Shown in pieces: positions 3,411 through 52,522 of a stretch of DNA of 64,000 bases. The position numbers were made by a program, and so were the translations under genes. Under the pieces are notes generated by a model, which did not search any database, was not told where the DNA came from, and worked only from the letters and a program-made list of their open reading frames with translations. Position 1 is the stretch's first letter, and each line of letters opens with the position of its first letter. The stretch is taken from the IMG/VR virus record IMGVR_UViG_3300031784_000002, one strand, 5' to 3'. The stretch comes from a virus. Taxonomy: Duplodnaviria; Caudoviricetes.

Positions 3411-3481
3411 GGGGAATTAGTTAAACGGTATAACGGGTGCTTTGCAAGCACTTATTAGGAGTTCGATTCTCCTATTCTCCA
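3411..3481 (+). tRNA. tRNA-Ala(UGC)
   Basis: Cloverleaf: acceptor GGGGAAT/ATTCTCC with the G3:U70 Ala determinant; anticodon loop TTTGCAA; T-loop TTCGATT; CCA not encoded. Confidence 0.92.
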
Positions 3482-24294: not shown

Positions 24295-24621
24295 ATGGGG
24301 AAACACTATCTTCTTAACTTATTTGGATGCTCATTCGCTCACTTGAACGATGAGCATTTTCTTATGGATCTTTTAGAAAATGCAGCTGCAGCAAGTGGCG
24401 CAACTGTATGTCAAACGATCTTTAAAAAATTTGATCCACAAGGAGTTACGGTGTTGTGTTTGTTATCTGAGAGCCATATAAGTATTCATACATGGCCAGA
24501 AGATGGTAAAGCTGCATGTGATGTTTATACATGTGGAGATTGCAACCCAAAAATCGGGTGTGACATAATCATTCAACAATTAAGTGCAACAAATCATACT
24601 CTAAGTTATATTGAGAGATGA
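24295..24621 (+). CDS. speD: S-adenosylmethionine decarboxylase proenzyme (class 1b)
   Basis: GKH; GVTVLCLLSESHISIHTWPE autocleavage motif; DVYTCG. Confidence 0.92.
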   Translation: MGKHYLLNLFGCSFAHLNDEHFLMDLLENAAAASGATVCQTIFKKFDPQGVTVLCLLSESHISIHTWPEDGKAACDVYTCGDCNPKIGCDIIIQQLSATNHTLSYIER

Positions 24622-24660: not shown

Positions 24661-24981
24661 ATGCTTTCAACGCAGTATCGTCTAAGACTTGAAGGCATTT
24701 GCAATAAAATCGTTGCTCGTGAAGAAGTAAGTCTTGACGAAATGATTTGGGCAGAAAAACTTGCAAAAGCAAATCGAACTGCAGGAACAATCTTAAGACA
24801 AGCAAGAAGAACAGCAGAAAATCCTGACATGATGAAGGGAGACATGGATGATTTTTTAAATCAACTTGACATCGGTGGTTTGGGACATGAACGATTTGGT
24901 AAGCGTGGTTTTGACGATATAGATGATATGGTTGACTGGTGGACAAAAGATAAACCCGAAGATTGGCGTCAAAGAGATTAA
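24661..24981 (+). CDS. Conserved hypothetical protein
   Basis: MLSTQYRLRLEGIC...WRQRD. Confidence 0.75.
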   Translation: MLSTQYRLRLEGICNKIVAREEVSLDEMIWAEKLAKANRTAGTILRQARRTAENPDMMKGDMDDFLNQLDIGGLGHERFGKRGFDDIDDMVDWWTKDKPEDWRQRD

Positions 24982-24984
24982 ATG

Positions 24985-25036
24985 GTAACAAATGTTACAA
25001 AAGTGGTTGACTACATAGAGTGAATAGGAGTATACT
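24985..25036 (+). promoter_or_regulatory. NtcA-like box plus sigma70 promoter
   Basis: GTA-ACAAATGT-TAC (GTA-N8-TAC; palindrome GTAACA-aa-TGTTAC) at 24985-24998; TTGACT 25007, N18, TATACT 25031. Confidence 0.6.
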
Positions 25037-25046
25037 AATCTCCTAA

Positions 25047-25298
25047 CGTTCATCCTATGACTAAAGCACTTTTGCTTTTAGCATGGGTTCCACTTCTTTC
25101 TTTTGCTTCACCACAACCTACTAAGACTGAATTTCTAGTCACAATAAGTTGTGATACAGCGTGGGAACTAATGGACATCGTTAAAAACGACGATGTAGTA
25201 CACCAAAGAAAAGAAGACCAATTGCTATTAGAACTACGAAAAGACGTAGTTACCAAGTGTTAAAACCTAATAGGACGGAAGTAAGCCGACTCGGAACG
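25047..25298 (+). ncRNA. Glutamine-II/Downstream-peptide-like aptamer 1 (ORF inside variable loop)
   Basis: CGTTCA 25047 pairs GAACG 25294; TCCTAT 25053 pairs ATAGGA 25270; then CGGAAGTAAGCCGAC. Confidence 0.65.
25057..25263 (+). CDS. 68-aa protein with signal-like N-terminus and two Cys, nested in aptamer 1
   Basis: ORF track; ATG lies in the 5' stem strand. Confidence 0.65.
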   Translation: MTKALLLLAWVPLLSFASPQPTKTEFLVTISCDTAWELMDIVKNDDVVHQRKEDQLLLELRKDVVTKC

Positions 25299-25301
25299 GA
25301 T

Positions 25302-25470
25302 CGTTCATCTATGGAAGCAATCATTCTCACTTGTTTACAAGCACAACTGATGGCAGGAAGAGTCCTTAAACACGACATTTCCAACCATGTAAAGAATGAT
25401 ATTATTTGGGAGATCAAACAGATTACCCCAAAGAATTGCCCCATAGACGCAAAAGCCGACTGAAGGAACG
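25302..25470 (+). ncRNA. Glutamine-II/Downstream-peptide-like aptamer 2 (ORF inside variable loop)
   Basis: CGTTCA 25302 pairs GAACG 25466; TCTATGG 25308 pairs CCATAGA 25441; then CGCAAAAGCCGACTGAAGGAACG. Confidence 0.7.
25311..25463 (+). CDS. 50-aa two-Cys protein nested in aptamer 2
   Basis: MEAIILTCLQAQ...ITPKNCPIDAKAD*; internal ATG of track ORF 25257..25463. Confidence 0.6.
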   Translation: MEAIILTCLQAQLMAGRVLKHDISNHVKNDIIWEIKQITPKNCPIDAKAD

Positions 25471-25503
25471 CTCTTTAACTTAAACCCCTAAGGAGAAAAC
25501 CTA

Positions 25504-25668
25504 ATGTCACAAGCAACCTATCGTGGGTGCAAGTATAATACTGACACCCCAAAACAAGAATATCAACACTGGTATTCTGAAACACATGCACCAGCACATC
25601 CACAAAATAAGTATCGTGGTGTTGCCTACCGTCCATGCAATAACTGGAACTGGGAGGAAGCAAAATGA
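25504..25668 (+). CDS. DUF4278-like small protein (two YRG motifs)
   Basis: Hand-read MSQATYRGCKY...NKYRGVAYRP...; SD AGGAG at about 25490. Confidence 0.7.
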   Translation: MSQATYRGCKYNTDTPKQEYQHWYSETHAPAHPQNKYRGVAYRPCNNWNWEEAK

Positions 25669-25763
25669 AAAAACTTAATTTTCTTCAACTCATCAAAGAT
25701 AAAAAACAAAAAGAAGATCGTCAGCATCAAGCCAAGTTAGTACAATTAATTGGTGCAAAGTAA
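25665..25763 (+). CDS. 32-aa basic helical peptide
   Basis: MKKLNFLQLIKDKKQKEDRQHQAKLVQLIGAK; ATGA coupling. Confidence 0.6.
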   Translation: MKKLNFLQLIKDKKQKEDRQHQAKLVQLIGAK

Positions 25764-25849
25764 TGGCACAATTCCTTATTTCTGCAACAGCAATGATCAC
25801 TCTATTAACTGTTGGATTCTCACTATACATTCAATGGATTTATAAATGA
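25763..25849 (+). CDS. 28-aa hydrophobic peptide
   Basis: MAQFLISATAMITLLTVGFSLYIQWIYK; TAATG coupling. Confidence 0.55.
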   Translation: MAQFLISATAMITLLTVGFSLYIQWIYK

Positions 25850-25857
25850 ATTTTTAG

Positions 25858-25884
25858 AAGGAGGGTTTACACCCTCCTTTTTTT
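25858..25884 (+). terminator. Rho-independent terminator
   Basis: AAGGAGGGT-ttac-ACCCTCCTT then T run. Confidence 0.88.
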
Positions 25885-25915
25885 GTAGTAAAATTGTAAG
25901 AGACTATGCATAATC

Positions 25916-26094: not shown

Positions 26095-26727
26095 ATGACT
26101 GTAAAACTTATTTCTATCACTCCTGATGCAGAACAAACAATGGCGTATATTGCGCGAGTTTCTAATCCTGCGAATCAAGACAACCAAAACTATGCCAAGT
26201 TGCTTGCTTATTGTATTAAGCATAATCATTGGTCTGTTTTTGAACAGTCTACTATGACCCTTGAGATTGAGACGACTCGTGGCATTGCGGCCCAAATTTT
26301 GCGTCATAGGTCTTTTACATTTCAAGAATTTTCTCAACGATATGCAGACACCAATCTCTTAGGAGAAGATATTCCTTTGCCTGAACTTCGTCGTCAGGAC
26401 ACAAAGAACCGTCAGAACTCCATTGATGACCTTCCAGTAGATCTGAAGATTCATTTATACGCAAAGATCCAGGATCATTTTGACGCTGCCCAGGAACTCT
26501 ACAAGGAACTCCTAGAGTATGAGGTCGCAAAGGAGTGTGCTCGCTTTGTACTCCCCTTGGCGACTCCCACACGCATCTATATGACGGGCTCATGCCGTTC
26601 TTGGATACATTACATCAATCTTCGTTCTGCACACGGGACTCAAAAGGAACATATGGACATCGCTTTGGAATGTAGGAGAGTATTTACCGAACAATTCCCA
26701 TCCGTTTCAGAAGCCCTGGAATGGTAA
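26095..26727 (+). CDS. thyX: Flavin-dependent thymidylate synthase
   Basis: HWSVFEQ; QILRHRSFTFQEFSQRY; KECARFVLP; HGTQKEH. Confidence 0.97.
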   Translation: MTVKLISITPDAEQTMAYIARVSNPANQDNQNYAKLLAYCIKHNHWSVFEQSTMTLEIETTRGIAAQILRHRSFTFQEFSQRYADTNLLGEDIPLPELRRQDTKNRQNSIDDLPVDLKIHLYAKIQDHFDAAQELYKELLEYEVAKECARFVLPLATPTRIYMTGSCRSWIHYINLRSAHGTQKEHMDIALECRRVFTEQFPSVSEALEW

Positions 26728-41836: not shown

Positions 41837-43786
41837 ATGGCACCTCCAAAGAAAGATACTCCATTAAGATCACCATTAGTCTCGGCTTTTAGTAATATTG
41901 TCAATATTAATAGATCTAAATCTCAAATGAAGTCTACACAGGCTTCGTATAGTGAATTTTTGAGATTTATGACTACGGAAGTAAGAAATATTGAAGCAAT
42001 TAAACTTCCAGATGAAAAAAAGATCAAAAGGTTATCAAGTATCAATGTAAGTTCTACATTTGGATCCGCCGGAAGTTTGCTTTCTGGTTTAGCTAGTGGT
42101 GCTTTAGATGCTGCAGGATTGGTTGGTAATTTATTTGGTGGTGGAGGGAAAGGTGGTAAAGGCGGCAAACCTGGTGCAAAACCGAGTCCAAAAGCAGGAA
42201 AACCAATACCAAAAGGTACAAAAATCAGACTTCCTGGTGTTAGAGGATTGCCGATTCTTTCCGCTGCTTTAGCTGGATTAGATTTTGCACAAGGAATATC
42301 CGAAGGAGAATCTGTGGGCAAAGCAGGTGCTGGTGCAGTTGGATCTGCTGCTGGTGCTGCTGGTGGCGCTCTTGCTGGTGCAGCATTAGCGGGAGCTATT
42401 GGTCAGACATTGGTTCCAATTCCTGGATTAGGTTTTGTATTAGGAGCTGCAGTTGGTAGTTTGGGAGGACTTGCTGGAGGTTATTTAGCTGATAGAGCAT
42501 ATGAATCTGCGACTGGGGAAGGAAAAGTAAAAGAAAAACAAAAAGCAAAATTAAAACAACAAGAACAAAAACAAAAACTTGCAGCAACATCAGCTTCCAA
42601 AGTTACATTGCCTCAGGTATTGGATAAATTTGAAAATGTTGTTATTAAATTTGAAAAAGTTTCAATGAATCTTGCCGCGCCACAAGAAGTTGTCCCTCAA
42701 GGATATGATGAAGAACTTGGAGAAGATGAGGCTCCAAAATTACCGGAAGACACAACTCCTGGAGGTGTAGATTCCATCCAATATGGATCAGGAAATGCAG
42801 AATTTGGTGAAACTGGAAATGTAAGTAATGCTCCTGGTTGGGTTCATGGACATTTTCAAGGTGATAGTGCGGGTGCGGTTGTTAAAGATACAACAATGGT
42901 AGTCAAAGCTTTATTGAAACAAGGATCTCCAGTTTACCTGAATCCTGGAGTAGACTTAAATCCATCTAAACAGTACAGCGATGAAGAAATAAGAAGTTAT
43001 GTTGAACAAGCAAGAAGAGCCCATACCCATAGTGGAACAGGAAAATCTATCGATGTTTTTGTAAAAAAAGGTACGAAAATACCAGTCCCTCTTACTAATG
43101 TTGGTCCAACTGGATCTGGTTTTGGTGGTTATGGTAGAGGCGGAATTGCTGGTTATATTCAAGGAACACGTACTTGGATTGGTCACTTGAAACCTGGTTC
43201 TAAATCTGGTTTATCTGAAACCAAAGGAAAAATAGAATCAAAAGGTAAAGAAACTGGAGATATGGAAGATTTAAAACCTGGAGTAGTTCCAGATAAATCA
43301 CAAAATCCTGCTGCACCATCTCCTCCAAGTGCCGAGATGCAACAAAAGTTTCAAATGGCATGGGACAATAGAAGTAATCCTTTTGCAAGAGGAAAAATTG
43401 AATCTGCTTGGACAAATCTGACACCGGAACAACAACAACAAGCTAAAATATGGGCAAAATCAAAAGGATATAATTGGAATGAAATGAAGTTGAAAGAAAA
43501 ACCCATGAATGTTCAAGCTGCCCCAGCAACAGTCACTGCAGTTCCATCAATGCAACAGACTGTACCTCAACAAATAGAACAATATCCAGATTATAACTTA
43601 CCACAATCAAGTATAACGTTAATGCCAATTGTTATGGGTGGTCCTAGTGGATCACAACAACGACCTATGGTTATTGCTGGAGGTAGTGGAGGAGGAGGTA
43701 CAACGATCTTACCTCCAACTCCTGAAGGTCAGGTGTTAAATAGTTTATTCAAGACCATCTTGTTAACGAACTTATCGGGAACGTAA
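41837..43786 (+). CDS. Baseplate/tape-measure-like protein with TM-like Gly/Ala segment and M23-like motifs
   Basis: GAAAGAAGGALAG repeats; GETG..VHGHFQ and HSGTGKSID...GYG...IGHL. Confidence 0.6.
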   Translation: MAPPKKDTPLRSPLVSAFSNIVNINRSKSQMKSTQASYSEFLRFMTTEVRNIEAIKLPDEKKIKRLSSINVSSTFGSAGSLLSGLASGALDAAGLVGNLFGGGGKGGKGGKPGAKPSPKAGKPIPKGTKIRLPGVRGLPILSAALAGLDFAQGISEGESVGKAGAGAVGSAAGAAGGALAGAALAGAIGQTLVPIPGLGFVLGAAVGSLGGLAGGYLADRAYESATGEGKVKEKQKAKLKQQEQKQKLAATSASKVTLPQVLDKFENVVIKFEKVSMNLAAPQEVVPQGYDEELGEDEAPKLPEDTTPGGVDSIQYGSGNAEFGETGNVSNAPGWVHGHFQGDSAGAVVKDTTMVVKALLKQGSPVYLNPGVDLNPSKQYSDEEIRSYVEQARRAHTHSGTGKSIDVFVKKGTKIPVPLTNVGPTGSGFGGYGRGGIAGYIQGTRTWIGHLKPGSKSGLSETKGKIESKGKETGDMEDLKPGVVPDKSQNPAAPSPPSAEMQQKFQMAWDNRSNPFARGKIESAWTNLTPEQQQQAKIWAKSKGYNWNEMKLKEKPMNVQAAPATVTAVPSMQQTVPQQIEQYPDYNLPQSSITLMPIVMGGPSGSQQRPMVIAGGSGGGGTTILPPTPEGQVLNSLFKTILLTNLSGT

Positions 43787-52260: not shown

Positions 52261-52335
52261 GGGACTGTCGCCTATTGGTTAAGGCCCACTGCTTATAACG
52301 GTGTGAACGGAGTTCAATTCTCCGCAGTCCTACCA
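52261..52335 (+). tRNA. tRNA-Ile(UAU)
   Basis: Acceptor GGGACTG/CAGTCCT; anticodon loop CTTATAA; GTTCAATT; encoded CCA. Confidence 0.92.
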
Positions 52336-52343
52336 AAATAAAT

Positions 52344-52426
52344 GGGAGCATGGTGGAATCGGTAGACACACCAGACTTAAAATCTGTCGGGCATAGCCTG
52401 TGGGAGTTCAAGTCTCCCTGCTCCTA
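52344..52426 (+). tRNA. tRNA-Leu(UAA)
   Basis: GGTGGAATCGGTAGACAC D-arm; loop CTTAAAA; long variable arm; GTTCAAGTC. Confidence 0.93.
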
Positions 52427-52450
52427 TTAGTATACATAGTTATACTATTT

Positions 52451-52522
52451 GCCCTTGTAGCTCAGTGGTAGAGCAACGGTTTTGTAAACCGTTGGTCGCT
52501 GGTTCAAATCCGGTCGGGGGCT
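52451..52522 (+). tRNA. tRNA-Thr(UGU)
   Basis: TAGCTCAGTGGTAGAGC; loop TTTGTAA; GGTTCAAATCC. Confidence 0.95.

Follow-up and report, generated by a model that had tools for sequence, protein, structure and literature searches.

The type-1 glutamine riboswitch (Rfam family RF01739) is described from the leader of gifB in Synechocystis (PMC6212724). Its core consists of the sequences CGUUCA, CGGAAGUA and GAAGGAACGC, and it folds into a P1 helix, an inner hairpin and a mini-hairpin in the 5′ leader of a DUF4278 (IF17-like) gene. An anti-Shine-Dalgarno (anti-SD) sequence directly 3′ of P1 pairs with the ribosome-binding site. In the model for gifB, glutamine binding recruits the C residue after P1 into a long-range pair, which melts the helix over the ribosome-binding site and turns on IF17 synthesis (PMC6212724). 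Cyanophage glutamine riboswitches, their tandem arrangement and their link to DUF4278 are already known (PMC2864571; PMC6212724; PMC9964418; PMC9004378). The tandem glnA RNAs of phages S-PM2 and S-CREM1 are of this kind (PMC2864571; PMC9964418), and the place in S-CREM1 was annotated as a glnA riboswitch by its authors (PMC9964418). Here we describe a related element at positions 25047–25470 of a 64,000-nucleotide (nt) stretch of viral DNA, IMG/VR record IMGVR_UViG_3300031784_000002, the whole of which is termed the window. The element is probably the leader of a five-gene small-protein operon, made up of two tandem type-1 glutamine riboswitch aptamers that have genes nested in their hairpins.

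The core sequences, helices, leader position and anti-SD listed above have counterparts in the window. The loops differ, however. Those in the window are protein-coding inserts of 211 nt (unit 1) and 126 nt (unit 2) that open the inner hairpins, whereas the inner loops of 120 sampled cellular loci with the canonical 3′ core are at most 83 nt long and contain no open reading frame (ORF). In the window, the nested start codon also lies in the aptamer stem, the loop-E region is degenerate in each core, and the scores are below the family's gathering threshold. The tandem RNAs of S-PM2 and S-CREM1 are direct homologues, with the same locus, two cores, a 3-nt linker and a downstream YRG gene. These are short-looped and seen by Rfam, whereas the window and the cultured phage P-SSM4 have a gene in both loops. 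An earlier sequence-only reading of the window had raised a possible overlap with the RNA termed CfrI. This is refuted by the location of CfrI, which in S-PM2 is antisense to psbA and to a gene for a homing endonuclease (PMC2984593); the S-PM2 copy of the element is found between speD and td, the same place as in the window. The glutamine-II riboswitch (Downstream-peptide, RF01704) also displays CGUUCA, CGCA and GGAACGG in that order, and the start codon of its regulated ORF is within the aptamer (consensus cCAUGGAACGG). There, however, the ORF starts from the pseudoknot region on the 3′ side and continues downstream, and is not enclosed.

All features of the element are on the plus strand. 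In unit 1, as read from the sequence, CGTTC (25047–25051) is complementary to GAACG (25294–25298), and TCCTAT (25053–25058) to ATAGGA (25270–25275). The 5′ half (25047–25058) comprises the P1 strand CGUUC, A25052 and the inner-stem strand UCCUAU, and it includes the A and U of the ORF1 start codon. Nested gene 1 (25057–25263) encodes 68 amino acids with a hydrophobic N-terminus, a two-helix hairpin and cysteines at 32 and 68. The 3′ half (25270–25298) consists of AUAGGA (25270–25275), the joining strand CGGAAGUA (25276–25283), the mini-hairpin AG-CCGA-CU (25284–25291), CG, and the P1 strand GAACG. The 3-nt linker GAU (25299–25301) follows, and with the flanking GAACG and CGUUC it is able to form a junction hairpin that excludes both P1 helices.

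In unit 2, CGTTC (25302–25306) is complementary to GAACG (25466–25470), and TCTATGG (25308–25314) to CCATAGA (25441–25447). Its 5′ half (25302–25314) has the P1 strand CGUUC, A25307 and the inner-stem strand UCUAUGG, with the ORF2 AUG (25311–25313) inside. Nested gene 2 (25311–25463) encodes 50 amino acids in a two-helix hairpin with Cys8 and Cys43; the aptamer core supplies its final five codons (DAKAD) and its stop. The 3′ half (25441–25470) has CCAUAGA (25441–25447), the joining strand CGCAAA (25448–25453), the mini-hairpin AG-CCGA-CU (25454–25461), GAAG (25462–25465) and the P1 strand GAACG. A search of both strands of the 64-kb window with the pattern CG[CG]A[AG]...GGAACG finds solely the two 3′ halves. 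The stem and ORF coordinates of the sequence-only reading all hold in both units. So does its claim of a complete ORF in each unit with the AUG in the 5′ stem strand, the ORFs being genuine as judged by the coding signatures described below.

The assignment to RF01739 is based on proxies for loop-free units, namely the isolated 3′ halves and natural short-loop homologues. The sole match of the isolated halves among 4227 Rfam families is RF01739, with 10.2 bits for unit 1 and 9.8 bits for unit 2 (Infernal, truncated match). Syntenic short-loop homologues give 33.3 and 24.4 bits in S-PM2, 33.5 bits in S-CREM1 and 34.2 bits in DSL-LC03. The DSL-LC03 aptamer with this score of 34.2 bits and the 3′ half of unit 1 agree in every letter from ACGGAAGUA onward, and the core of unit 2 is the same as that in S-PM2 and S-CREM1, where with a short loop it scores ∼33 bits. 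Accordingly, the two units are type-1 glutamine aptamer homologues with a lengthened inner loop. The P1 helix CGUUC/GAACG is present in both, and the mini-hairpin of the cores has 2 bp. Also in both, the inner hairpin is found directly after CGUUCA and directly before CG(G/C)AA, with stems of 6 bp and 7 bp and a loop length far beyond the normal range of the family.

The claim of tandem glutamine-riboswitch folds is thus supported by the RF01739 matches of halves and homologues. The class had been named as Downstream-peptide/glnA; of this, glnA RNA (RF01739) is retained, and Downstream-peptide as the main class is given up, since the isolated halves match RF01739 alone. RF01704, in which a 3′ hairpin around GGAACG forms a pseudoknot with CGUUC, has no match at its score threshold of 33 or below it in the window or in the isolated halves. 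In some phages unit 1 does have the CGCA and GGAACGG features of that class, and unit 1 of S-PM2 reaches 24.6 bits with RF01704, a sub-threshold match that contains non-canonical pairs. A weak RF01739 match elsewhere in the window (∼41956–42005, 14.8 bits) shares ACGGAAGTAAG alone and is attributed to chance.

Comparative evidence for pairing across a gene comes from unit 2. Sixty distinct ORF-bearing sequences of this unit were compared, with pairs counted from the stem base and the 3′ strands shuffled among sequences 2000 times. At stem position 3, UA is found 36 times, UG 11 and CG 13. Position 4 has AU 34, CG 17, UA 8 and UG 1, with no mismatches, and position 5 has UA 30, AU 19, UG 5 and CG 2, with four mismatches. 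Paired cells amount to 128 of 144, as compared with 100.8 ± 4.6 in the shuffled sets, none of which reaches the observed number (0 of 2000). The varying bases of the 5′ strand are untranslated and lie just before the AUG, and they covary with the codon that precedes the Asp of the C-terminal tail. This points to a constraint that acts on the RNA and not on the protein. Compensatory changes among homologues, which had been proposed for the stems in general, are therefore found in the long-range stem of unit 2. Pairs were counted from the stem base because gaps in MAFFT alignments shift the inner-stem strands out of register; RNAalifold, applied to 49 unit 2 sequences aligned with MAFFT, recovers the invariant P1 and the mini-hairpin alone. 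It finds no conserved structure inside the ORF2 insert.

A number of results weigh against the reading of two tandem glutamine aptamers. Rfam scans of the whole window at gathering thresholds, and of 24950–25700 permissively at E ≤ 10, give no glutamine-family match in the window, and at gathering thresholds four tRNAs alone are found. The covariance-model check with the ORF loops intact, which the sequence-only reading had put forward, is thus negative, and this is because the long inserts defeat the model. The gathering score of RF01739, 35 bits, is not reached even by the short-loop homologues (24.4–34.2 bits). P1 is invariant in relatives and is therefore without covariation; thus tandem and swapped P1 pairing cannot be distinguished by comparative data. 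The long-range stem of unit 1 (TCCTAT/ATAGGA) is nearly invariant and is beyond the covariation test, and the shuffling in unit 2 ignores phylogeny. The loop-E region of unit 1 has CGGAAGUA (AGUA), but has CG instead of GAAG and is without the opposing GAA. That of unit 2 keeps GAAG, but CGCAAA stands where CGGAAGUA is expected. With these departures from the loop-E consensus, glutamine binding by either unit alone is not assured. The complementary core deviations (25276–25293 versus 25448–25465) are conserved in more than 100 contigs. Furthermore, the contigs from RNA libraries that cover the leader, described below, may include DNA carry-over.

The remaining points of this kind are thermodynamic, from calculations for 25043–25520 that treat secondary structure only and ignore tertiary contacts and ligand. 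A local hairpin over the ORF1 start codon, AUG1, has a pair probability of 0.92 and outcompetes the long-range inner stem of unit 1 (0.05). P1 probabilities are 0.05 for unit 1 and 0.0 for unit 2. Ensemble energies are −125.4 kcal/mol unconstrained, −120.3 with swapped P1 and −117.6 for the tandem aptamers, and the tandem form is therefore not favoured. On the other side, the inner stem that spans ORF2 has a pair probability of 0.98 in the whole leader, and the minimum free energy (MFE) structure of unit 2 alone includes P1 and the inner stem (z = −3.6). The anti-SD:SD helix is at 0.97 and is also in the whole-leader MFE structure. The split aptamers are presumed to bind glutamine.

The swapped pairing raises the question of whether the two units form one composite, interlocked sensor. 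In such a sensor, GAACG-GAU-CGUUC would be an inner hairpin, the outermost CGUUC (25047) would pair with the outermost GAACG (25470), and the cores would complement each other, with AGUA from unit 1 and GAA from unit 2. The junction hairpin is indeed in the whole-leader MFE structure with a probability of 0.56, and swapping P1 while both inner stems are kept improves the energy by 2.7 kcal/mol over the tandem conformer. Each core departs from the consensus where the other keeps to it, and the 26-nt junction is exactly conserved in at least 120 IMG/VR contigs. Nevertheless, the inner stems pair within units and not across them (9.65 of 10 pairs versus 6.44 of 10, with the within-unit value higher in 49 of 52 stem combinations), and RF01739 recognizes each unit alone when the loop is short. 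A swapped P1 would also place the strand after CGUUCA and the strand before CGGAAGUA in different helices, unlike the junction of the solved aptamer, and both P1 and the trans loop-E are without covariation. Other viral tandems have linkers of 4–9 nt, in a small sample. A composite sensor is therefore considered unlikely, and two aptamers, each closed within its own unit, are preferred.

The arrangement is not confined to the window. In a BLAST search of phage genomes, the junction at 25270–25316, which comprises the unit 1 3′ half and the unit 2 5′ half, is 93–96% identical in many Prochlorococcus and Synechococcus myoviruses. This conservation, the confinement of the 3′-half pattern to the two units, and the promoter and terminator on either side argue against a chance pattern. 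Loci from at least 120 IMG/VR contigs were parsed by anchoring at CGTTCA and CG[CG]AA. Each parsed unit has either a loop of 3–27 nt or an insert of 103–215 nt, with no other class, and every insert holds an ORF, the ATG of which begins 9–12 nt after the C of CGTTCA. For units 1 and 2, respectively, the arrangement is short/long in 43 loci, short/short in 24, long/long in 18, as in the window, and long/short in six. Cultured P-SSM4 has the double-nested layout, with the nested ORFs annotated as PSSM4_169.2 and PSSM4_169.3; no Rfam glutamine-family match is obtained at this locus. In DSL-LC03 only the second loop holds a gene, and the gene-bearing units escape Rfam. The gene-in-aptamer layout is shared by hundreds of cyanophage contigs. 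In P-SSM4, a manA RNA (RF01745, 184 bits; positions 719–904 of the stretch analysed) is found ∼100 nt upstream of the nested array, so that two structured leaders adjoin.

The converse approach started from the proteins. Searches with the nested proteins retrieved 261 viral stretches for ORF1 and 418 for ORF2, and flanks were examined in the best 80 of each. The ORF1 peptide patterns lie outside the aptamer. Of the two ORF2 patterns, DAKAD comes from the core, which makes the ORF2 retrieval partly circular. Both aptamer halves and a paired stem flank 40 of 44 distinct ORF1 loci and, with that reservation, 43 of 45 distinct ORF2 loci. The remaining loci are at contig ends or have a CAGTTCA variant of the 5′ half. 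Thus, the nested genes and the aptamer halves form an obligate unit. Two loci of the ORF1 family, L400 and L402 (at ∼385–400), have CAGTTCA for CGTTCA in the 5′ half and are possibly decaying or variant aptamers. The 120 cellular loci are mostly from filamentous cyanobacteria, with SAR86, SAR116 and others also represented; as none has an ORF in its loop, the nested layout looks phage-specific in this sample. An apparent nested case among cellular loci (L178) is a parser artefact and consists of two ordinary riboswitch–DUF4278 units in a row. Another (L154), with a 445-nt loop and a degenerate 5′ half, CGTTTA, was not inspected and is presumed spurious. A scan of viral contigs for AGGAACG and CGTTCAT separated by 0–14 nt yields mostly chance matches; 13 are aptamer-like, with linkers of 3–9 nt. 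The scan is uninformative.

These layouts bear on a second alternative, that the aptamer halves are mainly recombination linkers comparable to PeSL cassettes. Small genes would be swapped between them, the gene-interrupted aptamers would be dead and the nested genes would be passengers. The presence or absence of inserts is indeed polymorphic among close relatives and also within single RNA libraries, the same 9-bp hairpin occurs in unit 1 of some phages and unit 2 of others, and a PeSL-like promoter stem-loop precedes the array. However, in a dead aptamer neither an invariant distant 5′ half nor an inner stem kept paired by compensation across the insert would be expected. The ORF families are found almost solely inside aptamers, and the AUG is always at the same 9–12 nt from the start of CGUUCA. 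Recombination linkers are accordingly judged improbable as the main role of the halves.

The coding capacity of the inserts was evaluated in 83 distinct inserts, by comparing the frame set by the stem AUG with the other two. All 83 are open in the stem-AUG frame, and neither of the other frames, with means of 4.8 and 5.3 stops, is open in any insert; the ORF2 frame is open in 60 of 60 distinct relatives. In the ORF1 family, the ratio of nonsynonymous to synonymous polymorphism (pN/pS) is 0.32 and codon-position entropy is 0.28/0.19/0.45, with the third position highest. A third ORF family, found in unit 1 of other phages, has a pN/pS of 0.20. The ORF2 family is more diverged, with a pN/pS of 0.73 and entropies of 1.27/0.86/1.44. 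Cys, Trp and Glu columns are invariant in the alignments of the nested proteins, and the ORFs were called both by gene callers and by the annotators of P-SSM4. By these coding signatures, the inserts are to be regarded as real genes. That they are RNA-only hairpin expansions with untranslated frames is very improbable: neither AUG has a Shine-Dalgarno (SD) sequence at the usual distance, both are predicted to be base-paired, and pN/pS is high in the ORF2 family, but the single open frame, the codon-position pattern with pN/pS of 0.2–0.3 in two families, the invariant columns, the confident helical-hairpin model of ORF2 and the lack of conserved structure by RNAalifold inside the ORF2 insert all argue for translation.

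At the amino acid level, the AlphaFold2 model of ORF2 is a two-helix hairpin (helices 2–20 and 25–38; predicted local distance difference test score, pLDDT, 88.6). That of ORF1 has helices 32–44 and 50–67 and is less confident (pLDDT 64.5). Homologues fall into 251 clusters at 90% identity for ORF1 and 53 for ORF2, all unnamed and from aquatic metagenomes and phages. ORF2 matches phrog_504 with an E-value of 0.003. Searches of Pfam, PHROGs, the Atlas and, with Foldseek, the AlphaFold DB clusters gave no match that would assign a function; Foldseek E-values are all 3 or higher and are on generic helical hairpins. The two nested proteins had been thought paralogous. They do share a two-helix, two-Cys layout, but statistical support is missing (hhalign probability 3.6%); between the three nested-ORF families hhalign gives 3.6%, 4.3% and 0.3%, and a common origin is without support.

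It had also been pointed out that the stop codon of unit 2 is part of the conserved 3′ strand. The position is correct, as the TGA at 25461–25463 is inside the conserved core (cTGAAGGAACG). Selection of this triplet as a stop is not supported, since ORF-less units carry the same CTGAAGG as well as CTAAAGG variants. The stop in the core is thus a property of the RNA consensus.

The location of a gene inside the hairpin has consequences for folding, as neither sensor can form unless segments ∼210 or ∼130 nt apart pair with each other. The predicted transcript opens with the 5′ strands of P1 and the inner stem of unit 1, which take up its first ∼15 nt and include AUG1, and the 5′ half of unit 2 doubles as the initiation region of ORF2. 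A ribosome that terminates on ORF1 (stop at 25261–25263) would cover the inner-stem 3′ strand, and one that terminates on ORF2 would cover the core, P1 and the anti-SD. Folding of a sensor and translation of its nested gene would therefore be mutually exclusive. In addition, the local hairpin CCUAUG...CAUGGG (25054–25087; p = 0.92) encloses the ORF1 start codon, and a CU-rich coding stretch (25091–25106) is complementary to the unit 1 core (AAUAGGACGGAAG). Both pairings are in the RNAalifold consensus of 20 relatives, with GU/GC variants at two pairs. Together they could constitute a built-in anti-aptamer.

These properties suggest a toggle, which we offer tentatively. The two aptamers would be coupled via the junction hairpin; bound glutamine would shut the nested genes and open the IF17-like gene, and low glutamine or ribosomes on the nested genes would do the reverse. 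In the ligand-free ground state, the junction hairpin would exclude both P1 helices at once and the DUF4278 start would stay closed. In the working considered most likely, the 5′ halves would, during transcription or at low glutamine, be free or held in the junction and AUG1 hairpins, ribosomes would load on the nested genes, and the anti-SD (25471–25477) would keep the DUF4278 start closed. At high glutamine, and with the help of tertiary contacts, the aptamers would close and bury both nested start codons in P1 and the inner stem. Closure would also pull C25471 from the anti-SD helix, as for gifB, and the IF17-like DUF4278 gene would be translated. Ribosomes on a nested gene would in turn block folding of that aptamer, and a single RNA would thereby couple sensing to translation. 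The direction of control and the opposite responses of nested and downstream genes are inferred, as are the ligand-dependent hiding of the start codons and the gating of the downstream gene put forward in the sequence-only reading.

Parallels to this arrangement exist in other systems. Group I introns of T4-type phages have ORFs looped out of peripheral hairpins, their core folds by long-range pairing, and translation and folding can interfere. Those are ribozymes with mobile homing-endonuclease genes, whereas in the window the RNA is a candidate ligand sensor and the ORFs are helical hairpins of 50–68 amino acids without nuclease features. In leader-peptide attenuators such as trpL, translation of a short leader ORF decides RNA pairing. 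Here, in contrast, the nested ORFs encode conserved proteins on which purifying selection acts, and the structure that competes with translation is an aptamer for a metabolite.

Aptamers are usually treated as compact, contiguous and non-coding, and search tools assume this. In the window, a validated class appears to enclose whole protein genes. P-SSM4 was sequenced in 2005 and carries the layout, yet the family covariance model gives no match there or in the window. Phage riboswitch censuses are thus undercounts. No description of a gene inside a glutamine aptamer was found in PMC2864571, PMC6212724, PMC9964418 or PMC9004378, or in a full-text literature search, most subscription journals being outside its reach. 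If the split aptamers still bind glutamine, one RNA would join metabolite sensing with nested-gene translation, which would be a new regulatory logic, and nature would offer an instance of an aptamer that assembles at long range around an insert undergoing translation. If the toggle is true, this would be the first known riboswitch that encloses and reciprocally regulates genes within its own aptamer, and the phage would gain a two-state read-out of host nitrogen status. The layout also points to uncharacterized two-helix, two-Cys small phage proteins that may be tied to host nitrogen status. Their genes adjoin that of an IF17-like candidate inhibitor of glutamine synthetase.

Upstream of the element there is a sigma-70-like early promoter (25007–25036), with −35 TTGACT (25007–25012), an 18-nt spacer and −10 TATACT (25031–25036), or 10 of 12 matches; its end is ∼10 nt from unit 1. 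A transcription start at ∼25043, ∼4 nt before unit 1, had been predicted, and this promoter agrees with it. Nearly all related loci have a promoter equally far from CGTTCA. An inverted repeat, TAGGAG/CTCCTA (25025–25045), has the −10 hexamer in its loop and arms that covary between loci. PeSL composite promoter/terminator motifs have been described for T4-type phages (PMC4122927). In ∼100 loci the −10 hexamer is flanked by inverted-repeat arms that covary, an arrangement that resembles these motifs. Among these ∼100 loci, the arms are GGAG/CTCC in the window and GGGG/CCCC, GAGG/CCTC, TGTGTT/AACACA or GGTC/GACC elsewhere. The covariation of the arms favours a nucleic-acid hairpin over a protein operator.

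At the RNA level, three metatranscriptome libraries include contigs of relatives with cover over the leader. Two such contigs begin at ∼25036–25043 and none lies upstream; one contig start directly abuts adapter sequence. This weakly suggests that transcription begins at the predicted position, ∼4 nt ahead of unit 1. The stretches 25366–25429 and upstream of 25014 are without RNA-contig cover, which is not readable as absence of transcript. The RNA-library contigs include natural variants with a short hairpin in place of the ORF2 insert.

Downstream of unit 2, the expression platform (25471–25495) has the anti-SD CUCUUUA (25471–25477), which pairs with UAAGGAG (25489–25495; SD AAGGAG, 25490–25495). 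An anti-SD of this design is also found in a canonical cyanobacterial riboswitch–DUF4278 locus, L178. The gene that follows (25504–25668, 54 amino acids) is IF17-like, and the claim of a YRG gene downstream of unit 2 is confirmed in that it is DUF4278-like. It matches Pfam PF14105 (E = 1.7e-4) with 22.3 bits, which is under the Pfam cut-off of 25.3, and phrog_5049 with an E-value of 2.6e-9; its YRG repeats likewise support DUF4278 kinship. A gene that starts with M-S/A-K/Q-V-x-Y-R-G follows unit 2 in nearly every related locus listed.

Two small ORFs complete the putative operon (25665–25849). They encode 32 amino acids (25665–25763) and 28 amino acids, the latter hydrophobic (25763–25849), their starts overlap the preceding stops, and they have weak PHROG matches alone. 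By the overlapping stop and start codons, both are translationally coupled to the DUF4278 gene. An intrinsic terminator with an 11-bp stem and a subsequent T run (25856–25881) closes the operon. The flanking genes in the window are speD (24295–24621) and thyX (26095–26727).

The phage that carries the window is a freshwater T4-like cyanophage, and the best matches to 24950–25900 are in freshwater and lake metagenomes. Its cultured relatives are nearly all marine, and the closest isolates, DSL-LC02 and DSL-LC03, are from a lake. The four tRNA genes of the window (Rfam RF00005, 55–69 bits) are found at 3411–3481 and in a cluster of three at 52261–52522.

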